Below, piece by piece: positions 31,424-52,052 of a DNA stretch of 64,000 nucleotides. This DNA comes from Auanema rhodensis (lineage: Eukaryota > Animalia > Nematoda). The translations under genes were made by a program, and so were the position numbers. The stretch is taken from positions 4,898,001 through 4,962,000 of the forward strand of contig OZ059897.1 in assembly GCA_964057225.1 (NCBI GenBank), given 5' to 3'. Below the pieces are notes generated by a model, which saw only the letters and a program-made list of their open reading frames with translations, was not told the origin of the DNA and made no database searches. The first letter of the stretch is position 1, and the number at the start of each line of letters is the position of its first letter.

Positions 31424-31427
31424 ACGT
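31424..31427 (+). repeat. Target-site duplication ACGT, left copy (right copy 36018-36021)
   Basis: The uninterrupted monomer reads CATC-ACGT-GAAC, and ACGT is present on both sides of the element. The first A on the right could alternatively belong to the A tail. Confidence 0.8.
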
Positions 31428-31428
31428 T

Positions 31429-31463
31429 CATTCCGCGATTTGACCCCATTCCGCGATTTGACC
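31429..31463 (+). repeat. 17-bp direct repeat CATTCCGCGATTTGACC x2 (period 18) at the LINE 5' end; also at 47463-47497
   Basis: Copies at 31429-31445 and 31447-31463. Confidence 0.95.
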
Positions 31464-31479
31464 TCGTCTTGGGTGGTCG
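31446..31479 (+). promoter_or_regulatory. Possible internal Pol II promoter (Inr-like CCATTCC, DPE-like GGTCG at +28 to +32)
   Basis: With A31448 as +1, 31475-31479 = GGTCG fits RGWYV at the canonical DPE spacing. These are short degenerate motifs, so support is weak. Confidence 0.35.
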
Positions 31480-31637
31480 ACTCCTGCTCGTGTCTCTCTG
31501 CATCCCATAACGCCGGACTGGTTTTGCAAGGTACGCTTTCTTCTTTTTCTTCTAATTTTAATCCTTTTTCAATTTTCTTCTTCTTTTTTTTCTTTACTTC
31601 CTATTACTTCTTTTTTTCTCTACTTTTTCACTTAACC

Positions 31638-32702
31638 ATGTCTCACGTAACTAACGAGTTTCTTACTACTGCCCTCGAATCACTTTCCGATTCTCTACAT
31701 AACTCTTTTGCTGAACTATCAGTACAAATAAGAAACGAGCTCAGTAGTATCAAAACCGCAGTTGCATCGCATGACTCACGCATAAAACTCATCGAAACCG
31801 ATTTCAAATTGCGTCTCGAAAAGTTGGAGCAAAAGTTAACTCAACTCTCTTGCACTATTCCTAACACCATCAATAACTCACCTCTTTTTTCTTCTTCCAA
31901 TGTTGCATGCCAAATCCAAAAAATTAGAACAGAGGAGACAAAGTACGATTATCGTTCTAAGAGAGCCCTCTGGTTCCGTGTACCAGTCTCTTGCCCTGAC
32001 TTACCTTCTGACCCTTCTTCTTTACTGAAACTGGTCATTGAAAAATCCAACGACGCTACTTTGTCAACTCTCCTTAACACTAACCAAATAACCATTGCAC
32101 GTTGCATCCTCAAATCAAAATCCCCAGGCCCACTCATTATTACTTGTCCATCGGTTGAATTGCGGGACAAAATAATAGCATGTATCAAAGCAAATAAGAC
32201 TAAATGTTTTGAATTTTTATCTAAAACTTTTGTACGTCGCGACTATTTTCCTTTTGAAATTCAACTGGAAAATAACCTTCGCGAGGAAGCAAAAGAAAAA
32301 AATAAAAACAACACTAAGTCCGTCTTCTTGGTGCGAGATCTTCGACTTATTGAAGTTACCCGTAATACAACCGATCCTCCAAACTCTCAAATAGCTCCTA
32401 CTTCCTCTTGTAATCAAACCCCTAAAATACCTTCTGTTCACAACGCTCCTTTATCAACACTTCACTCTCAAACTATCACATCCCCAACCCTTTTTTCTAG
32501 CCCCCCTTGTAAATCTGGTAGAATAAGCCGGTCGAAGGAAAGACAGAACCGCACGTCGAAAGATAAGCGTTCTTCTGTTAGCCCAAGACGACGCAAAAAT
32601 CCACCACGATTTGCAAAGTTAACCTCAGATCAAATAACCAGGTCTGTCAGCATGAACCCTGCATCTCAACGTGTTGCGTCTGACAAAATGTCCTTTCGTT
32701 AA
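31638..32702 (+). CDS. LINE ORF1 protein (354 aa from the first ATG; coiled coil, putative RNA-binding core, Ser/Pro/Arg-rich tail)
   Basis: First ATG in context AACCATGT (MSHVTNEF...). The track's 31440 start is a TTG reading through a poly-pyrimidine UTR. Heptad-like N-terminus (LESLSDSL...LEKLEQKLTQL), an FVRRDY...LREEAKEKN...FLVRDLRLI block resembling invertebrate CR1 ORF1, and position upstream of APE-RT. Confidence 0.85.
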   Translation: MSHVTNEFLTTALESLSDSLHNSFAELSVQIRNELSSIKTAVASHDSRIKLIETDFKLRLEKLEQKLTQLSCTIPNTINNSPLFSSSNVACQIQKIRTEETKYDYRSKRALWFRVPVSCPDLPSDPSSLLKLVIEKSNDATLSTLLNTNQITIARCILKSKSPGPLIITCPSVELRDKIIACIKANKTKCFEFLSKTFVRRDYFPFEIQLENNLREEAKEKNKNNTKSVFLVRDLRLIEVTRNTTDPPNSQIAPTSSCNQTPKIPSVHNAPLSTLHSQTITSPTLFSSPPCKSGRISRSKERQNRTSKDKRSSVSPRRRKNPPRFAKLTSDQITRSVSMNPASQRVASDKMSFR

Positions 32703-35526
32703 CATTGTCTCGTCCTCAACCCCTCTTGTCTCTCCTAACCCTACCAGCTTCTCAGTTCAGTGTTTTAATGCACGATCTATTCTCAACAAACTTCATTCAC
32801 TATCTCACGTTATTTCCTTATCCTCTCCTGATATAATTGCTATATCAGAATCTTGGCTTTTTCCAGAGTTCGATACCCACCTACTTCCGTGCAAAGATAC
32901 TTACTCTATTTTTAGAGCCGATAGGTGTACCTCACGTGGTGGTGGCGTTGTCCTCTATGTAAAAAACCATGTCAAAGTCTGTCTCCTTTCTTGCTCTTCC
33001 CCTCAATCTTCCATACAATTTATTAACTTACTCATTCCTTCACTTAATACTGTTTTTTCACTTTGTTATCGCCCTCCATCAGCTTCTCATTCAGACTTTA
33101 TTTTGTTTCTAACTGATCTACGTAAACAAATTTCCAGACGATCGTTTTTTCTAACAGGTGATCTAAATTTCCCTAAAATCAATTGGGATCTCGGTGTTTG
33201 CTCACAACCATGCTCCTCTAGTAAATCTATTCTTCAATTTCTCAACGACTGCTGTTCTTACCAATTAGTAAAGTTCCCTACTAGAGGCAACAACATTCTC
33301 GATTATGTTATCACCGACAACATATCTAGCGTAGTCAACATAGCTCGTTCTTCTCCCCTCGGTTCCTCGGATCATCATTCTGTTGTTTTCCATATTGTCT
33401 CTGATACTTCTCAGCTAGCTACGGCGATCAACTCTTCTGATATTTCTTCTTCGGCAGCACTTCCTATGTTTTCTGATCGTAATTTTCAAGCTGCCGATTA
33501 CAACTTCATCAACCATAAACTAGCCAACATAGATTTTGCTAGTCATCTTTCCGGTCTTACTCCTTTAGACTCTTATTCCAAATTTATTCACATTCTTCAC
33601 TCGGTCATCGATTGCTGCGTACCCAGGAAACAAGAAAGAAGAAAAAAGAAGATTGACCGAGATATCTCTAAACTCTCTTCTCACATTAACAAACTTAGCT
33701 CCTCTTTTCATCATCATGATGAATCCCGCCGTAAAAAACTATCTCTTTCTCTTGATAAACTTATCAAGAATAGATTGGCTTCGGAAGAAGAACGTATTGC
33801 TAATTATAACAATTCAAAACTTTTTTACCGCTTCTGCAGAACTCGTCTGGGCGGCAACACTTCAGATATCCCTAATCTCAAAATAGATAATAATTCTGTT
33901 TCGTCTGATTCTGACAAAGCTTCTATCTTTGCCAGTACCTTCTCTGTTCACCCTCTCCCTATCTCTTCAGCTCATGCTCCTATTTCTTCTTCTTCTGGTA
34001 TCATCGATTTCATTGATGTGTCTCCGCTCAACGTTTACAAAATTCTCTGTCAGTTACCTCTCCGGGTATCAACCTCTCCTGACGGAATCCCTTATTTTTT
34101 CCTAAAAAATTGTGCTTCTACTATTTCTCAGCCTCTAGCCTTTGTCTTTCACAATCTTCTTGTCTCCTCCTCTTGCCCTGCTGACTGGAAAACAGCTTGG
34201 ATTCGTCCTGTTCTTAAATCAGGACTCTCTTCCAACCCGGCTAATTATCGTCCTATTTCTCTTACATCCAGTCTCTCTAAAGTTTTTGAACGTCTCCTGC
34301 GTTCACCTCTTCTTGACTTTGGTATTTCCTCCGGTTTTATTTCACCCAATCAGTTTGCCTTTCTTCCAAAACGCAATACTGTATCGGCAATTCTTAGTAG
34401 TCATGTTCTCTGGAGATCTGCTGTGGACAAGAAAAAACCTGTTTATGTTGCCTTTATTGATTTTTCCAAGGCTTTCGATCTTATAAATCATTCTGTTCTT
34501 TTGACTAAACTAAAATCAATTGGTATCGACGGCTGTATCCACTCCTTCCTCAAAAACTTTATTACTAATAGATCTTTCTCCGTATTGGTTAATTATTCTC
34601 TATCCGCCACCAGTCATTTGCCCTGCGGAGTTCCACAAGGGACTGTTCTGGGTCCACTACTTTTCCTATTCTACATAAATGATATTACGTCAAATTTACC
34701 TGATGACGTACATCCAACTCTCTATGCGGACGACCTTAAACTCAGCAGCACTAATCCTATAAGTTTACAATTGGCCTTGAATAATCTGAAAAATTGGTGT
34801 CTATTAAACGGTATGAAGGTAAATACCTCTAAATCTAAAGTAATGATTATATCTAGTACTACTACATCAAGATTGAACACAATTTTCAAATTTGGCGACA
34901 TCTCGTTAGCCACAGTATCAACATACAAAGATCTTGGTGTATGTACAGACTATAATCTTTCCTTCAATAGCCACATAAATAGAATATCTAACATTGCTGC
35001 TCACAAATGTCGTGTTATCTTGCGTTGTTTTTACTCAAGATCACCAACCTTGATGTTTAAACTCTTTTGCTGTTATATCAGACCTATATTGGAATATGCC
35101 TCAGTTGTATGGTCTCCCCAAAACAACAAAGATAAAGCACGCATTGAGTCTATACAAAAAAAATTCTTAAACGCTATTTTTAAGAGAGCCGAAATAGCTT
35201 TGGATTACAAAAACCAGCTATTGTTTCTTGGAGCTAAGGAACTATCTTTTAGAAGATCGATAATTGATCTAGTCTTTTATCATAATCAGATAACCAAAAA
35301 CATTCCAGAAAACAGCCTCAATTTTTTTACTGTCAAGCACTATGCTCATTCACTTCGTAGACATCTATGGAATGTTGAATATCCTGATCTTTGGAAAAGC
35401 GAAACAAGAACTGGAATTGAATACAGAGCTATTCAAACCTGGAACACTCTTCCTGAGAGCATCGTTCAACTGAGAAACACCGTCAGCTTCAAAAAACATC
35501 TATCTATTATTTTAAATGATTTTTAA
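32671..35526 (+). CDS. LINE ORF2: apurinic-like endonuclease plus reverse transcriptase (start not AUG; frame open from 32656; probably entered by +1 frameshift at 32694-32698)
   Basis: APE motifs FNARS, ISESWL, FRADR..GGGV, YRPP, GDLN, PTRGNNILD, SDH. RT motifs SPDGIP, NYRPISLTS, QFAF, DFSKAFD, GVPQGTVLGPLLF, YADD, KDLGV. CR1-type C-terminus YIRPILEYASVVWSP...WNTLP...FKKHL. No stops over 951 codons. Confidence 0.95.
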   Translation: MLRLTKCPFVNIVSSSTPLVSPNPTSFSVQCFNARSILNKLHSLSHVISLSSPDIIAISESWLFPEFDTHLLPCKDTYSIFRADRCTSRGGGVVLYVKNHVKVCLLSCSSPQSSIQFINLLIPSLNTVFSLCYRPPSASHSDFILFLTDLRKQISRRSFFLTGDLNFPKINWDLGVCSQPCSSSKSILQFLNDCCSYQLVKFPTRGNNILDYVITDNISSVVNIARSSPLGSSDHHSVVFHIVSDTSQLATAINSSDISSSAALPMFSDRNFQAADYNFINHKLANIDFASHLSGLTPLDSYSKFIHILHSVIDCCVPRKQERRKKKIDRDISKLSSHINKLSSSFHHHDESRRKKLSLSLDKLIKNRLASEEERIANYNNSKLFYRFCRTRLGGNTSDIPNLKIDNNSVSSDSDKASIFASTFSVHPLPISSAHAPISSSSGIIDFIDVSPLNVYKILCQLPLRVSTSPDGIPYFFLKNCASTISQPLAFVFHNLLVSSSCPADWKTAWIRPVLKSGLSSNPANYRPISLTSSLSKVFERLLRSPLLDFGISSGFISPNQFAFLPKRNTVSAILSSHVLWRSAVDKKKPVYVAFIDFSKAFDLINHSVLLTKLKSIGIDGCIHSFLKNFITNRSFSVLVNYSLSATSHLPCGVPQGTVLGPLLFLFYINDITSNLPDDVHPTLYADDLKLSSTNPISLQLALNNLKNWCLLNGMKVNTSKSKVMIISSTTTSRLNTIFKFGDISLATVSTYKDLGVCTDYNLSFNSHINRISNIAAHKCRVILRCFYSRSPTLMFKLFCCYIRPILEYASVVWSPQNNKDKARIESIQKKFLNAIFKRAEIALDYKNQLLFLGAKELSFRRSIIDLVFYHNQITKNIPENSLNFFTVKHYAHSLRRHLWNVEYPDLWKSETRTGIEYRAIQTWNTLPESIVQLRNTVSFKKHLSIILNDF
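32691..32702 (+). promoter_or_regulatory. Candidate +1 programmed ribosomal frameshift site UCC_UUU_CGU(_UAA), copy 1
   Basis: In-frame last codons of ORF1. A UUU to UUC slip places the ribosome in the ORF2 frame (TTC GTT AAC). The motif is identical to the influenza A PA-X shift site. Confidence 0.7.
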
Positions 35527-36002
35527 TCTGTTTCTTGTTAATGTAACTTGAAATCTTGTCCATGTATATATTTTTTTTTCTTTTACTAGCATTTGTGCCT
35601 AACTGCATGTTATGGTTGGATAGTTTCCTAGTTTACTTCTGAGACCTGTTACTACGTATCGAATCCTATAGACATTAGTCATATGGATGGAGCGTTAGTT
35701 ACCTCTCACTGTCAGAACGGGCTCGACTCAAGTCAAGAGTTCCACCGCACCTGTCAGAATACTACAGAGGTCAGTGATCTTCACTGAACAAATTTTCTCT
35801 CCTTTACCAAACTAGAACTTCAAAACTTTAACACACCAGTGGTGCTGTACGCTATCATAATGAAAGGAAATATGCAGGACTCGTTTTCTTTAAACATATT
35901 AAGTCGATTATTATGTATGTTTGTATTGTAAGGTTCTTCTGTATTTCTACAATTTTCCGCTATTTATTAACATTGTTTCCGCTCTTAACCTGTGATTCGA
36001 AC

Positions 36003-36008
36003 AATAAA
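36003..36008 (+). terminator. Polyadenylation signal AATAAA near the LINE 3' end (copy 2: 52038-52043)
   Basis: AATAAA is followed by CCCGTTC and 2-3 A residues at the 3' junction. Confidence 0.6.
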
Positions 36009-36017
36009 CCCGTTCAA

Positions 36018-39000
36018 ACGTGAACATTTAATTAGCATAAATTAAAGTTCACGTAAATTTCAAAGTCATGGTTACCATGCACCAATATCAATAAAAATTT
36101 GTTTTTAGACTAATATGGACATGAGGAATCTAATTTTGAAAACCGCATCTCTTTATCTTTCACGTGAAGTGAGTTACATACCAAGTGCACATCACGTGTA
36201 CATTTAATTAGCATAAATTAAAGTTCACGTAAATTTCAAAGTCATGGTTACCATGCACCAATATCAATAAAAATTTGTTTTTAGACTAATATGGACATGG
36301 GGAATCTAATTTTGAAAACCGCATCTCTTTATCTTTCACGTGAAGCAAGTTACATACCAAGTGCACATCACGTGTACATTTAATTAGCATAAATTAAAGT
36401 TCACGTAAATTTCAAAGTCATGGTTACCATGCACCAATATCAATAAAAATTTGTTTTTAGACTAATATGGACATGGGGAATCTAATTTTGAAAACCGCAT
36501 CTCTTTATCTTTCACGTGAAGCGAGTTACATACCAAGTGCACATCACGTGTACATTTAATTAGCATAAATTAAAGTTCACGTAAATTTCAAAGTCATGGT
36601 TACCATGCACCAATATCAATAAAAATTTGTTTTTAGACTAATATGGACATGGGGAATCTAATTTTGAAAACCGCATCTCTTTATCTTTCACGTGAAGCAA
36701 GTTACATACCAAGTGCACATCACGTGTACATTTAATTAGCATAAATTAAAGTTCACGTAAATTTCAAAGTCATGGTTACCATGCACCAATATCAATACAA
36801 AATTGGTTTTAGACTAATATGGACATGGGGAATCTAATTTTGAAAACCGCATCTCTTTATCTTTCACGTGAAGCAAGTTACATACCAAGTGCACATCACG
36901 TGTACATTTAATTAGCATAAATTAAAGTTCACGTAAATTTCAAAGTCATGGTTACCATGCACCAATATCAATAAAAATTTGTTTTTAGACTAATATGGAC
37001 ATGGGGAATCTAATTTTGAAAACCGCATCTCTTTATCTTTCACGTGAAGCGAGTTACATACCAAGTGCACATCACGTGTACATTTAATTAGCATAAATTA
37101 AAGTTCACGTAAATTTCAAAGTCATGGTTACCATGCACCAATATCAATAAAAATTTGTTTTTAGACTAATATGGACATGGGGAATCTAATTTTGAAAACC
37201 GCATCTCTTTATCTTTCACGTGAAGCGAGTTACATACCAAGTGCACATCACGTGTACATTTAATTAGCATAAATTAAAGTTCACGTAAATTTCAAAGTCA
37301 TGGTTACCATGCACCAATATCAATAAAAATTTGTTTTTAGACTAATATGGACATGGGGAATCTAATTTTGAAAACCGCATCTCTTTATCTTTCACGTGAA
37401 GTGAGTTACATACCAAGTGCACATCACGTGTACATTTAATTAGCATAAATTAAAGTTCACGTAAATTTCAAAGTCATGGTTACCATGCACCAATATCAAT
37501 AAAAATTTGTTTTTAGACTAATATGGACATGGGGAATCTAATTTTGAAAACCGCATCTCTTTATCTTTCACGTGAAGCGAGTTACATACCAAGTGCACAT
37601 CACGTGTACATTTAATTAGCATAAATTAAAGTTCACGTAAATTTCAAAGTCATGGTTACCATGCACCAATATCAATAAAAATTTGTTTTTAGACTAATAT
37701 GGACATGGGGAAACTAATTTTGAAAACCGCATCTCTTTATCTTTCACGTGAAGCAAGTCACATACCAAGTGCACATCACGTGCACATTTAATTAGCATAA
37801 ATTAAAGTTCACGTAAATTTCAAACTCATGGTTACCATGCACCAATATCAATAAAAATTTGTTTTTAGACTAATATGGACATGGGGAATCTAATTTTGAA
37901 AACCGCATCTCTTTATCTTTCACGTGAAGTGAGTTACATACCAAGTGCACATCACGTGTACATTTAATTAGCATAAATTAAAGTTCACGTAAATTTCAAA
38001 GTCATGGTTACCATGCACCAATAACAATAAAAATTTGTTTTTAGACTAATATGGACATGGGGAATCTAATTTTGAAAACCGCATCTCTTTATCTTTCACG
38101 TGAAGCGAGTTACATACCAAGTGCACATCACGTGTACATTTAATTAGCATAAATTAAAGTTCACGTAAATTTCAAAGTCATGGTTACCATGCACCAATAT
38201 CAATAAAAATTTGTTTTTAGACTAATATGGACATGGGGAATCTAATTTTGAAAACCGCATCTCTTTATCTTTCACGTGAAGCGAGTTACATACCAAGTGC
38301 ACATCACGTGTACATTTAATTAGCATAAATTAAAGTTCACGTAAATTTCAAAGTCATGGTTACCATGCACCAATATCAATAAAAATTTGTTTTTAGACTA
38401 ATATGGTCATGGGGAATCTAATTTTGAAAACCGCATCTCTTTATCTTTCACGTGAAGCAAGTTACATACCAAGTGCACATCACGTGCACATTTAATTAGC
38501 ATAAATTAAAGTTCACGTAAATTTCAAACTCATGGTTACCATGCACCAATATCAATAAAAATTTGTTTTTAGACTAATATGGACATGGGGAAACTAATTT
38601 TGAAAACCGCATCTCTTTATCTTTCACGTGAAGCAAGTCACATACCAAGTGCACATCACGTGCACATTTAATTAGCATAAATTAAAGTTCACGTAAATTT
38701 CAAACTCATGGTTACCATGCACCAATATCAATAAAAATTTGTTTTTAGACTAATATGGACATGGGGAATCTAATTTTGAAAACCGCATCTCTTTATCTTT
38801 CACGTGAAGCGAGTTACATACCAAGTGCACATCACGTGTACATTTAATTAGCATAAATTAAAGTTCACGTAAATTTCAAAGTCATGGTTACCATGCACCA
38901 ATATCAATAAAAATTTGTTTTTAGACTAATATGGACATGGGGAAACTAATTTTGAAAACCGCATCTCTTTATCTTTCACGTGAAGCAAGTCACATACCAA

Positions 39001-47461: not shown

Positions 47462-47671
47462 TCATTCCGCGATTTGACCCCATTCCGCGATTTGACCTCG
47501 TCTTGGGTGGTCGACTCCTGCTCGTGTCTCTCTGCATCCCATAACGCCGGACTGGTTTTGCAAGGTACGCTTTCTTCTTTTTCTTCTAATTTTAATCCTT
47601 TTTCAATTTTCTTCTTCTTTTTTTTCTTTACTTCCTATTACTTCTTTTTTTCTCTACTTTTTCACTTAACC

Positions 47672-48736
47672 ATGTCTCACGTAACTAACGAGTTTCTTAC
47701 TACTGCCCTCGAATCACTTTCCGATTCTCTACATAACTCTTTTGCTGAACTATCAGTACAAATAAGAAACGAGCTCAGTAGTATCAAAACCGCAGTTGCA
47801 TCGCATGACTCACGCATAAAACTCATCGAAACCGATTTCAAATTGCGTCTCGAAAAGTTGGAGCAAAAGTTAACTCAACTCTCTTGCACTATTCCTAACA
47901 CCATCAATAACTCACCTCTTTTTTCTTCTTCCAATGTTGCATGCCAAATCCAAAAAATTAGAACAGAGGAGACAAAGTACGATTATCGTTCTAAGAGAGC
48001 CCTCTGGTTCCGTGTACCAGTCTCTTGCCCTGACTTACCTTCTGACCCTTCTTCTTTACTGAAACTGGTCATTGAAAAATCCAACGACGCTACTTTGTCA
48101 ACTCTCCTTAACACTAACCAAATAACCATTGCACGTTGCATCCTCAAATCAAAATCCCCAGGCCCACTCATTATTACTTGTCCATCGGTTGAATTGCGGG
48201 ACAAAATAATAGCATGTATCAAAGCAAATAAGACTAAATGTTTTGAATTTTTATCTAAAACTTTTGTACGTCGCGACTATTTTCCTTTTGAAATTCAACT
48301 GGAAAATAACCTTCGCGAGGAAGCAAAAGAAAAAAATAAAAACAACACTAAGTCCGTCTTCTTGGTGCGAGATCTTCGACTTATTGAAGTTACCCGTAAT
48401 ACAACCGATCCTCCAAACTCTCAAATAGCTCCTACTTCCTCTTGTAATCAAACCCCTAAAATACCTTCTGTTCACAACGCTCCTTTATCAACACTTCACT
48501 CTCAAACTATCACATCCCCAACCCTTTTTTCTAGCCCCCCTTGTAAATCTGGTAGAATAAGCCGGTCGAAGGAAAGACAGAACCGCACGTCGAAAGATAA
48601 GCGTTCTTCTGTTAGCCCAAGACGACGCAAAAATCCACCACGATTTGCAAAGTTAACCTCAGATCAAATAACCAGGTCTGTCAGCATGAACCCTGCATCT
48701 CAACGTGTTGCGTCTGACAAAATGTCCTTTCGTTAA
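47672..48736 (+). CDS. LINE ORF1 protein, copy 2
   Basis: Translation identical to copy 1 (offset 16,034); ATG at 47672. Confidence 0.85.
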   Translation: MSHVTNEFLTTALESLSDSLHNSFAELSVQIRNELSSIKTAVASHDSRIKLIETDFKLRLEKLEQKLTQLSCTIPNTINNSPLFSSSNVACQIQKIRTEETKYDYRSKRALWFRVPVSCPDLPSDPSSLLKLVIEKSNDATLSTLLNTNQITIARCILKSKSPGPLIITCPSVELRDKIIACIKANKTKCFEFLSKTFVRRDYFPFEIQLENNLREEAKEKNKNNTKSVFLVRDLRLIEVTRNTTDPPNSQIAPTSSCNQTPKIPSVHNAPLSTLHSQTITSPTLFSSPPCKSGRISRSKERQNRTSKDKRSSVSPRRRKNPPRFAKLTSDQITRSVSMNPASQRVASDKMSFR

Positions 48737-51560
48737 CATTGTCTCGTCCTCAACCCCTCTTGTCTCTCCTAACCCTACCAGCTTCTCAGTTCAGTGTTTT
48801 AATGCACGATCTATTCTCAACAAACTTCATTCACTATCTCACGTTATTTCCTTATCCTCTCCTGATATAATTGCTATATCAGAATCTTGGCTTTTTCCAG
48901 AGTTCGATACCCACCTACTTCCGTGCAAAGATACTTACTCTATTTTTAGAGCCGATAGGTGTACCTCACGTGGTGGTGGCGTTGTCCTCTATGTAAAAAA
49001 CCATGTCAAAGTCTGTCTCCTTTCTTGCTCTTCCCCTCAATCTTCCATACAATTTATTAACTTACTCATTCCTTCACTTAATACTGTTTTTTCACTTTGT
49101 TATCGCCCTCCATCAGCTTCTCATTCAGACTTTATTTTGTTTCTAACTGATCTACGTAAACAAATTTCCAGACGATCGTTTTTTCTAACAGGTGATCTAA
49201 ATTTCCCTAAAATCAATTGGGATCTCGGTGTTTGCTCACAACCATGCTCCTCTAGTAAATCTATTCTTCAATTTCTCAACGACTGCTGTTCTTACCAATT
49301 AGTAAAGTTCCCTACTAGAGGCAACAACATTCTCGATTATGTTATCACCGACAACATATCTAGCGTAGTCAACATAGCTCGTTCTTCTCCCCTCGGTTCC
49401 TCGGATCATCATTCTGTTGTTTTCCATATTGTCTCTGATACTTCTCAGCTAGCTACGGCGATCAACTCTTCTGATATTTCTTCTTCGGCAGCACTTCCTA
49501 TGTTTTCTGATCGTAATTTTCAAGCTGCCGATTACAACTTCATCAACCATAAACTAGCCAACATAGATTTTGCTAGTCATCTTTCCGGTCTTACTCCTTT
49601 AGACTCTTATTCCAAATTTATTCACATTCTTCACTCGGTCATCGATTGCTGCGTACCCAGGAAACAAGAAAGAAGAAAAAAGAAGATTGACCGAGATATC
49701 TCTAAACTCTCTTCTCACATTAACAAACTTAGCTCCTCTTTTCATCATCATGATGAATCCCGCCGTAAAAAACTATCTCTTTCTCTTGATAAACTTATCA
49801 AGAATAGATTGGCTTCGGAAGAAGAACGTATTGCTAATTATAACAATTCAAAACTTTTTTACCGCTTCTGCAGAACTCGTCTGGGCGGCAACACTTCAGA
49901 TATCCCTAATCTCAAAATAGATAATAATTCTGTTTCGTCTGATTCTGACAAAGCTTCTATCTTTGCCAGTACCTTCTCTGTTCACCCTCTCCCTATCTCT
50001 TCAGCTCATGCTCCTATTTCTTCTTCTTCTGGTATCATCGATTTCATTGATGTGTCTCCGCTCAACGTTTACAAAATTCTCTGTCAGTTACCTCTCCGGG
50101 TATCAACCTCTCCTGACGGAATCCCTTATTTTTTCCTAAAAAATTGTGCTTCTACTATTTCTCAGCCTCTAGCCTTTGTCTTTCACAATCTTCTTGTCTC
50201 CTCCTCTTGCCCTGCTGACTGGAAAACAGCTTGGATTCGTCCTGTTCTTAAATCAGGACTCTCTTCCAACCCGGCTAATTATCGTCCTATTTCTCTTACA
50301 TCCAGTCTCTCTAAAGTTTTTGAACGTCTCCTGCGTTCACCTCTTCTTGACTTTGGTATTTCCTCCGGTTTTATTTCACCCAATCAGTTTGCCTTTCTTC
50401 CAAAACGCAATACTGTATCGGCAATTCTTAGTAGTCATGTTCTCTGGAGATCTGCTGTGGACAAGAAAAAACCTGTTTATGTTGCCTTTATTGATTTTTC
50501 CAAGGCTTTCGATCTTATAAATCATTCTGTTCTTTTGACTAAACTAAAATCAATTGGTATCGACGGCTGTATCCACTCCTTCCTCAAAAACTTTATTACT
50601 AATAGATCTTTCTCCGTATTGGTTAATTATTCTCTATCCGCCACCAGTCATTTGCCCTGCGGAGTTCCACAAGGGACTGTTCTGGGTCCACTACTTTTCC
50701 TATTCTACATAAATGATATTACGTCAAATTTACCTGATGACGTACATCCAACTCTCTATGCGGACGACCTTAAACTCAGCAGCACTAATCCTATAAGTTT
50801 ACAATTGGCCTTGAATAATCTGAAAAATTGGTGTCTATTAAACGGTATGAAGGTAAATACCTCTAAATCTAAAGTAATGATTATATCTAGTACTACTACA
50901 TCAAGATTGAACACAATTTTCAAATTTGGCGACATCTCGTTAGCCACAGTATCAACATACAAAGATCTTGGTGTATGTACAGACTATAATCTTTCCTTCA
51001 ATAGCCACATAAATAGAATATCTAACATTGCTGCTCACAAATGTCGTGTTATCTTGCGTTGTTTTTACTCAAGATCACCAACCTTGATGTTTAAACTCTT
51101 TTGCTGTTATATCAGACCTATATTGGAATATGCCTCAGTTGTATGGTCTCCCCAAAACAACAAAGATAAAGCACGCATTGAGTCTATACAAAAAAAATTC
51201 TTAAACGCTATTTTTAAGAGAGCCGAAATAGCTTTGGATTACAAAAACCAGCTATTGTTTCTTGGAGCTAAGGAACTATCTTTTAGAAGATCGATAATTG
51301 ATCTAGTCTTTTATCATAATCAGATAACCAAAAACATTCCAGAAAACAGCCTCAATTTTTTTACTGTCAAGCACTATGCTCATTCACTTCGTAGACATCT
51401 ATGGAATGTTGAATATCCTGATCTTTGGAAAAGCGAAACAAGAACTGGAATTGAATACAGAGCTATTCAAACCTGGAACACTCTTCCTGAGAGCATCGTT
51501 CAACTGAGAAACACCGTCAGCTTCAAAAAACATCTATCTATTATTTTAAATGATTTTTAA
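48705..51560 (+). CDS. LINE ORF2 APE endonuclease plus reverse transcriptase, copy 2
   Basis: Translation identical to copy 1. Confidence 0.95.
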   Translation: MLRLTKCPFVNIVSSSTPLVSPNPTSFSVQCFNARSILNKLHSLSHVISLSSPDIIAISESWLFPEFDTHLLPCKDTYSIFRADRCTSRGGGVVLYVKNHVKVCLLSCSSPQSSIQFINLLIPSLNTVFSLCYRPPSASHSDFILFLTDLRKQISRRSFFLTGDLNFPKINWDLGVCSQPCSSSKSILQFLNDCCSYQLVKFPTRGNNILDYVITDNISSVVNIARSSPLGSSDHHSVVFHIVSDTSQLATAINSSDISSSAALPMFSDRNFQAADYNFINHKLANIDFASHLSGLTPLDSYSKFIHILHSVIDCCVPRKQERRKKKIDRDISKLSSHINKLSSSFHHHDESRRKKLSLSLDKLIKNRLASEEERIANYNNSKLFYRFCRTRLGGNTSDIPNLKIDNNSVSSDSDKASIFASTFSVHPLPISSAHAPISSSSGIIDFIDVSPLNVYKILCQLPLRVSTSPDGIPYFFLKNCASTISQPLAFVFHNLLVSSSCPADWKTAWIRPVLKSGLSSNPANYRPISLTSSLSKVFERLLRSPLLDFGISSGFISPNQFAFLPKRNTVSAILSSHVLWRSAVDKKKPVYVAFIDFSKAFDLINHSVLLTKLKSIGIDGCIHSFLKNFITNRSFSVLVNYSLSATSHLPCGVPQGTVLGPLLFLFYINDITSNLPDDVHPTLYADDLKLSSTNPISLQLALNNLKNWCLLNGMKVNTSKSKVMIISSTTTSRLNTIFKFGDISLATVSTYKDLGVCTDYNLSFNSHINRISNIAAHKCRVILRCFYSRSPTLMFKLFCCYIRPILEYASVVWSPQNNKDKARIESIQKKFLNAIFKRAEIALDYKNQLLFLGAKELSFRRSIIDLVFYHNQITKNIPENSLNFFTVKHYAHSLRRHLWNVEYPDLWKSETRTGIEYRAIQTWNTLPESIVQLRNTVSFKKHLSIILNDF
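48725..48736 (+). promoter_or_regulatory. Candidate +1 frameshift site UCC_UUU_CGU(_UAA), copy 2
   Basis: Same as copy 1. Confidence 0.7.
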
Positions 51561-52052
51561 TCTGTTTCTTGTTAATGTAACTTGAAATCTTGTCCATGTA
51601 TATATTTTTTTTTTCTTTTACTAGCATTTGTGCCTAACTGCATGTTATGGTTGGATAGTTTCCTAGTTTACTTCTGAGACCTGTTACTACGTATCGAATC
51701 CTATAGACATTAGTCATATGGATGGAGCGTTAGTTACCTCTCACTGTCAGAACGGGCTCGACTCAAGTCAAGAGTTCCACCGCACCTGTCAGAATACTAC
51801 AGAGGTCAGTGATCTTCACTGAACAAATTTTCTCTCCTTTACCAAACTAGAACTTCAAAACTTTAACACACCAGTGGTGCTGTACGCTATCATAATGAAA
51901 GGAAATATGCAGGACTCGTTTTCTTTAAACATATTAAGTCGATTATTATGTATGTTTGTATTGTAAGGTTCTTCTGTATTTCTACAATTTTCCGCTATTT
52001 ATTAACATTGTTTCCGCTCTTAACCTGTGATTCGAACAATAAACCCGTTCAA

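Follow-up and report, generated by a model that had tools for sequence, protein, structure and literature searches.

Known modes of ORF2 expression and +1 frameshifting

The mode of ORF2 translation has been settled for only a few LINEs, i.e., L1 and SART1, in which reinitiation yields a free protein. Older proposals exist for the overlapping ORFs of the T1/Q, R1, and TRAS elements. Among LTR retrotransposons, the +1 shift sites of Ty1 and Ty3 are CUU_AGG_C and GCG_AGU_U. In these two elements the shift occurs toward the 3′ end of the structural ORF and produces a structural protein–enzyme fusion, Gag-Pol, while for the Dictyostelium non-LTR elements TRE5-A and TRE3-A a frameshift in the −1 direction is said to be necessary for the translation of ORF2 (PMC5911963). 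Translation of ORF2 depends on translation of ORF1 in both L1 and SART1 (PMC2881922), and the first ATG of L1 ORF2 can be replaced by other sense codons (PMC1965478).

The +1 signal of influenza A PA-X is UCC_UUU_CGU, at which the P-site tRNA-Phe slips from UUU to UUC while the A site holds CGU; the UCC codon stimulates the shift from the E site, and the frequency of the shift is about 1.3% (PMC3498833). The shorter motif UUU_CGN has been proposed as the +1 site of amalgaviruses (PMC5052127). Human +1 sites in PLEKHM2 and ASXL1 follow the consensus YCC_UUU_CG; in PLEKHM2 the site alone is sufficient, as demonstrated by a reporter and mass spectrometry, and a 3′ structure is unnecessary for either PA-X or PLEKHM2 (PMC12551717). 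Transposons are not mentioned in the searched passages of that paper, which surveys vertebrate coding sequences.

A search of the full-text literature revealed no LINE with a PA-X-type motif; most subscription papers, Repbase Reports, and supplements were outside its scope, and a prior mention is possible. The accessible parts of a major review of recoding (Atkins 2016; PMC5009743) name HeT-A, TART, and L1 and no such LINE site, and ORF1–ORF2 frameshifting is not mentioned in the searched parts of three further papers (PMC4120745, PMC1925062, PMC4122939). As far as these sources extend, it is the PA-X-type motif in a LINE that is new here, whereas frameshifting in non-LTR elements already has a precedent in TRE5-A and TRE3-A.

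Structure and genomic setting of the element

We analyzed a CR1-like LINE within a 64,000-bp stretch of DNA, hereafter referred to as the window (Table 1). The window (1–64000) is a satellite array with a 176-bp monomer, identified by TRF and approximately 98% homogeneous, and the two LINE copies are its only non-satellite blocks. Copy 2 is situated at an offset of +16,034 from copy 1, with 99.98% identity across 4.7 kb; both copies occupy the same insertion point of the satellite monomer and have the flanking satellite in common. A 16,034-bp duplication expanded the satellite and took one LINE insertion along with its flanks, and copy 2, being a duplicate, provides no independent evidence, as the first-pass annotation of this DNA had cautioned. 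The possible target-site duplication was identified by comparing both element ends with the satellite monomer.

Table 1. Coordinates of the LINE copies and of the parts of copy 1 in the window
Feature	Position	Strand	Remarks
Full-length CR1-like LINE, copy 1	31428..36017	+	4,590 bp, inside 176-bp satellite
LINE copy 2, segmental duplicate	47462..52052	+	Motif at 48725–48736
Possible 4-bp target-site duplication ACGT, left copy	31424..31427	+	Right copy at 36018–36021; chance possible at 4 bp
5′ UTR	31428..31637	+	18-bp tandem duplication at 31429–31463; long pyrimidine-rich tract
ORF1, 354 aa	31638..32702	+	ATG 31638, TAA 32700–32702; ends ...ATG TCC TTT CGT TAA
ORF2 frame, stop to stop, 956 codons	32656..35526	+	Opens after TGA 32653–32655; APE endonuclease and reverse transcriptase
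CTG, near-cognate start candidate in the ORF2 frame	32680..32682	+	Kept in three of three subfamilies
Candidate +1 shift site TCC TTT CGT, with the ORF1 stop TAA directly behind it	32691..32702	+	Last three ORF1 sense codons
3′ UTR	35527..36017	+	AATAAA at 36003–36008

No poly(A), microsatellite, or tandem-repeat tail is present at the 3′ end of the element. In this respect it differs from vertebrate CR1, for which a short tandem-repeat 3′ tail is typical. ORF2 encodes an APE domain and a reverse transcriptase and has no RNase H match in Pfam, which fits the CR1 group of the Jockey superfamily. The element is classed here as "CR1-like" only, the trees described below containing no named CR1, L2, or Jockey references.

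ORF1 proteins of the CR1 group have an RRM-type RNA-binding fold, often with a PHD domain. The predicted fold of the window's ORF1 comprises a coiled coil, an RRM, a C-terminal domain resembling that of L1 ORF1p, and a disordered tail ending MSFR; the model was built from an 18-sequence alignment and has a pLDDT of 76, with low values for residues 257–354. Its best Foldseek matches are human L1 ORF1p (E = 1.8e-5), in line with the RRM-type fold of the group. No PHD domain was found in this ORF1 by Pfam, and PHD matches under the Pfam cut-off occur in three families of the metagenome scan described below (L034, L102, L103).

The ORF1–ORF2 junction

ORF2 is in the +1 frame relative to ORF1, and the two frames overlap by 47 nt (32656–32702); this arrangement and the terminal TCC TTT CGT TAA, both reported previously from the sequence, agree with the coordinates. 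Pfam places Exo_endo_phos at ORF2 residues 37–240 and RVT_1 at residues 528–731. The first ATG in the ORF2 frame is indeed at 33466, behind the Exo_endo_phos match, and is codon 271 of the stop-to-stop frame, while the number given earlier, 266, counts from GTG32671. Behind the shift site 942 ORF2 codons are open, and canonical initiation has no access to the APE domain.

The sequence TCCTTTCGT was found at 32691 and 48725 only, and the motif is the sole case of an in-frame TTT-CGN in ORF1 or ORF2. TCC TTT CGT matches, in the zero frame, the form YCC_UUU_CGN of PA-X-type sites. A slip from TTT (32694–96) to TTC (32695–97) predicts a fusion protein of 353 + 942 = 1,295 aa, a value that was recovered on recomputation, with a mass of 145.7 kDa. 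Within the overlap, which spans 14 ORF1 codons, the exact sequence would occur by chance with a probability of about 2e-4, YCY TTT CGN with one of 2e-3, and TTT CGN with one of 2e-2; these figures are based on the element's own codon use, are post hoc, concern one element within a large scan, and are insufficient alone to carry the case. RNA folds around the site are no better than those of shuffled sequences (z-scores 0.36, −0.01, −0.77, and 1.26), and hence no stimulatory structure is proposed.

The site is similar to that of PA-X in the identical 9-nt zero-frame motif, the +1 downstream frame, and the absence of a predicted 3′ structure. On the other hand, the LINE site, known here from sequence, is situated three codons before the ORF1 stop, belongs to a retrotransposon of a host genome, and would open an essential enzyme. 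The shifts in PLEKHM2 and ASXL1 add alternative C-termini to cellular proteins, and LINE families also use YCT before UUU. The likeness to Ty1 and Ty3 lies in the position of the +1 shift and in the type of fusion, but these are LTR elements with other shift sites, whereas the window element is non-LTR. In TRE5-A and TRE3-A the direction is −1 rather than +1, and no PA-X-type motif is named in the relevant passages. With L1 and SART1 the element shares the bicistronic LINE RNA and the ORF1p fold; ORF2 of these elements is translated at a low level in an ORF1-dependent manner, from an AUG at the ORF2 start and as a free protein, whereas the window LINE has no AUG before the APE domain and is predicted to produce a fusion.

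Conservation in close subfamilies

Thirteen sequencing runs are listed, ten of which contain the element or a part of it; none of the thirteen is an RNA run with the element, a result that does not bear on its expression. Six were compared, all as Logan contigs, which drop rare variants, and the best-matching run is possibly the window's own source. Two other subfamilies were observed: the first is about 96% identical, differing at 13 of 357 bases, and the second about 90% identical, with 63 differences plus a gap of 3 bases over 620. In the narrow stretch around the junction, the former differs at 32675, 32705, and 32734. The latter differs at 32658, 32659, 32661, 32673, 32675, and 32676, and then first at 32705; its sole gap, 3 bases near 32735, keeps the frame. 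Neither has an indel before 32733 or a listed change at 32677–32704. The frame, the motif, and the ORF1 stop are common to all three subfamilies, and no ORF2-frame ATG arises in any of them.

On these contigs, the +1 junction is not a private indel. The first-pass annotation had named a 1-bp indel in this copy, an AUG before the APE domain, and lack of the motif in other copies as findings that would speak against a programmed shift; none of the three was observed in the two other subfamilies. Its list of non-AUG start candidates is reduced by the same comparison, as GTG32671 and TTG32674 are changed in the other subfamilies, whereas CTG32680 survives; ATT32704, which is not on that list, is likewise not kept. 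The motif itself is retained, but for its 12 bases taken alone the conservation in the 90% subfamily does not reach significance (p = 0.13), and the lower value for a 28-base block (p = 0.004) refers to a block picked after looking.

The motif in other LINE families

A metagenome scan anchored on TTTCG located 45–75 nt upstream of the APE start yielded 105 loci, 25 of them with short flanks, which form 42 LINE families at 70% DNA identity. The anchor fixes TTTCG and leaves free the frame, the preceding codon, and the place in ORF1; the scan is blind to the number of clade members devoid of the motif. When families are assigned by majority class, 14 have the window's +1 arrangement and 28 do not. 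A YCY codon precedes TTT_CG in 7/14 of the former and 1/28 of the latter (p = 8e-4), or in 2/8 and 0/27, respectively, if the clade described below is merged to one unit (p = 0.047). The exception is L102: 22 nt of its linker are tandemly duplicated, and with the duplication taken out it falls into the +1 class. The motif is located at most 10 codons from the end of a long ORF in 8/14 families of the +1 class and 3/28 of the others (p = 0.0025); with one tied family moved out of the +1 class, the counts are 7/13 and 4/29 (p = 0.011).

The codons TCC, TCT, CCC, and CCT are read by inosine tRNAs. All eight YCY families use one of these four, and TCA, TCG, CCA, and CCG occur in none. Six of the eight have no ORF2-frame ATG between the site and the APE domain and none above the site. 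An in-frame ATG is found 15–17 codons upstream of the APE Asn in the family comprising L078, L082, L098, and L039, and upstream of the site in L077, while the L038 family (TTA before TTT) has two ATGs. These three ATG-bearing families need no frameshift and could start ORF2 normally; they do not share the +1 frame beyond the reach of canonical initiation that is seen in the window LINE. L034, L045, and L100 are intact: ORF1 measures 449–466 aa from its first Met, and 939 codons follow the APE Asn. ORF2 is devoid of an ATG in all three, its frame opening just six codons upstream of the site.

The ORF1 proteins of L034, L045, L100, L075, L078, L082, L102, and L103 are about 25–38% identical between families, and all of them end in (S/P)FR followed by 0–8 residues. 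The motif recurs at the ORF1 end and in the +1 arrangement in families whose APE domains are 27–34% identical to that of the window (L075: 47.9% over 71 residues). In the largest anchored family (32 loci), FR is an internal ORF1 protein motif located approximately 20 codons upstream of the stop; most of its loci belong to the −1 class, and it was not regarded as a shift site. The families L065, L067, L096, and L109, likewise of the −1 class, have a G_GAU_UUU-like context and were grouped with the non-motif families.

An unselected set was collected from a prokaryote genome collection by the APE-start pattern alone and contains 30 eukaryote-derived LINE loci (L001–L030). None of these 30 junctions, 26 of which have at least 100 nt upstream, carries TTTCG within 200 nt in the +1 arrangement; hence the motif is not general. 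The occurrence of eukaryotic LINE sequence within prokaryote genome records probably reflects host contamination of bins.

Phylogeny and other junction types

The phylogenetic analysis comprised an APE tree, FastTree, and IQ-TREE on 23 rows. Six motif families (L034, L045, L075, L078, L102, L103) form one clade with 96/98 support (IQ-TREE, 23 rows) and are not independent of one another. Since its APE domains are mostly 35–50% identical (range 35–61%), the motif appears to have lasted over a long divergence. L128 and L127 join this clade in the APE tree, and L077 is linked to it through ORF1 similarity only. The window's element and L032 are outside the metagenome clade and within the same larger group (98/97). 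Motif elements and four readthrough-type ones are separated in 0/200 bootstrap trees, suggesting more than one gain or loss of the motif.

UGA-CU is a readthrough context. Among the unselected loci, a single TGA-CT stop was observed in 5/5 loci with a same-frame upstream ORF of at least 80 codons and in 1/20 others (p = 1e-4). In such sister lineages ORF1 and ORF2 share a frame that is interrupted by one TGA with CT behind it; examples are L002, L013, L016, L020, and L024 of the unselected set, as well as L066 and L094, while in L058 the interruption is TGA-TAT. L013, L024, L066, and L058 belong to the window's larger group.

Further arrangements were seen in both sets. The intact element L005 (L015 is of the same family) has ORF2 in the +1 frame without an ATG, and its ORF1 stop is 127 nt before the APE Asn; the ORF1 end, CTT TTT TAG, is a possible shifty-stop +1 site. 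L027 (T TTT TTA) and L065, L067, L096, and L109 (G GAT TTT) have ORF2 in the −1 frame, with possible −1 slippery sites in the overlap. Taken at sequence level, ORF1–ORF2 fusion via recoding looks like a recurring solution in the window's LINE group and makes a frameshift in the window LINE more likely a priori. By the same token, ORF1–ORF2 recoding is less exceptional in this group than the first-pass annotation implied, given the TGA-CT junctions, the −1-type heptamers, and the TTT-TAG junctions. Whether the whole animal CR1-like branch makes ORF2p only as a recoded ORF1–ORF2 fusion, with lineages having switched between the PA-X-type +1 shift (YCY_UUU_CGN), UGA-CU readthrough, and −1 slippage, is in our view an even bet; if it does, a Gag-Pol-like fusion would be a general LINE strategy beside the reinitiation model of L1.

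Homologues of the ORF1 protein

A HMMER search of ORF1 against 1.84 billion representatives produced 24 matches. The three strongest (E = 4e-24 to 3e-19, 29–32% identity, from Auanema) end in TSFRK, NSFR, and STFRK. The last 100 residues of the strongest homologues are poorly alike, save a short SLPR-like patch, and the frequency of FR in the homologue set is 0.002 per residue. For these three only protein is available, so that the TTT and CGN codons are deduced from it, and one has Thr before Phe; their FR(K) ends could reflect the motif, and a protein end motif is also possible. FR is absent from the last ten residues of the other 21/24 homologues, some of which are fused or partial gene models. 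Among the 10/24 matches looked up, the closest named homologues are from Auanema sp. JU1783 (CAI4220742.1, CAI4221027.1, and CAI4220829.1), followed by Pristionchus and Ancylostoma, which makes a rhabditid nematode the probable host.

Word-indexed protein searches found no relative of ORF1 and, for the APE part, none of similar length, and there was no match in the viral sequence collection. The search with the ORF2 protein returned 42 distant proteins (22–32% identity), whose gene-called N-termini are uninformative on the junction. Eukaryotic clusters at 0.89–0.90 in the ESM Atlas serve as a lead only. The nematode-type ORF1 alignment showed no significant profile match to the ORF1s of L032 and L034 (probability 0.7% and 3.9%).

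A proposed programmed +1 frameshift and its alternatives

These observations are best explained by the production of the endonuclease/reverse transcriptase as a rare ORF1–ORF2 fusion through a PA-X-type +1 shift at UCC_UUU_CGU, a reading to which we assign a probability of roughly 0.8. By analogy with PA-X, the P-site tRNA-Phe of a ribosome on UCC_UUU_CGU, the last three sense codons of ORF1, would re-pair from UUU to UUC. About 1% of ribosomes would thereby enter ORF2 and produce the 1,295-aa, 146-kDa protein, while the remaining ones would release the 40-kDa ORF1p. A high ORF1p:ORF2p ratio would be set by the shift, as is that of Gag to Gag-Pol in Ty1, and the fusion might tether the enzyme into ORF1p trimers on the element's own RNA. 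The element is intact despite an ORF2 that is AUG-less up to behind the APE domain, and its close subfamilies are present in several runs. The anchored scan, the related families, and the closest homologues with their deduced codons suggest that the site is conserved beyond the need of the protein. The junction motif is conserved and probably functional; a recoding signal already known from elsewhere would thus operate in a LINE.

The main rival explanation is AUG-independent termination–reinitiation or near-cognate initiation as in L1, for instance from TAA32700 to CTG32680, which would yield free ORF2p and make the terminal FR a protein motif or a coincidence. It would agree with the tolerance of L1 ORF2 to a changed first ATG (PMC1965478), with the requirement of L1 and SART1 ORF2 for ORF1 translation (PMC2881922), with the retention of CTG32680, with the many AUG-less ORF2 frames among unselected loci, and with the presence of an ATG in three motif families. 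We nevertheless regard it as unlikely, since it leaves unexplained the link of an ORF1-terminal TTT_CGN to the +1 frame and to a YCY codon, with a pyrimidine third base in 8/8 families. Moreover, the other near-cognate candidates (GTG32671, TTG32674, ATT32704) are not kept, and the variable distance of FR from the stop, 0–8 codons across families, is a poor fit to a fixed protein end motif.

Splicing and trans-splicing are extensive in nematodes, and spliced RNA might join ORF1 in frame with ORF2, or trans-splicing might yield a shorter ORF2 message; the Pristionchus gene models P0050, P0055, and P0056 indeed fuse ORF1 and APE in one protein. Such processing is very improbable as the source of ORF2p here, given that the region 31428–33500 contains no TTTCAG acceptor and no GTAAG or GTGAG donor, that a trans-spliced message would still be devoid of an in-frame AUG upstream of the APE domain, and that the conserved motif would be left unexplained. 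Another reading, in which one extra base near ATG32688 disrupted a single-ORF or AUG-bearing LINE and chance accounts for the motif, draws on the position of this ATG directly before the motif and on the loss of rare variants from Logan contigs, which makes a rare in-frame master copy conceivable. It is hardly credible and appears largely refuted by the compared sequences: no contig covering the site has an indel (three subfamilies, six runs), and homologues at 30% identity likewise stop right after FR(K).

If the +1 shift operates as proposed, animal retrotransposons join viruses and two vertebrate genes as carriers of the PA-X-type signal, which offers a precise nine-base answer to the question of ORF2 expression for a group of AUG-less CR1-like elements. 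The predicted architecture, with the enzyme fused to a trimer-forming ORF1p, differs from that of L1 and SART1. In annotation, CR1-like elements split by a +1 shift of this kind should not necessarily be considered dead copies.

Additional features of ORF1

Immediately before the motif lies an ORF1-frame ATG (32688–32690), which all three subfamilies retain; the corresponding Met is not common to relatives. Initiation at this ATG followed by the shift would yield ORF2p without ORF1.

A 37-bp island of ORF1 (32495–32531), with no predicted structure, is situated approximately 160 nt upstream of the shift site. More diverged LINE families from the same runs match the element only at this island and then again from 32755.
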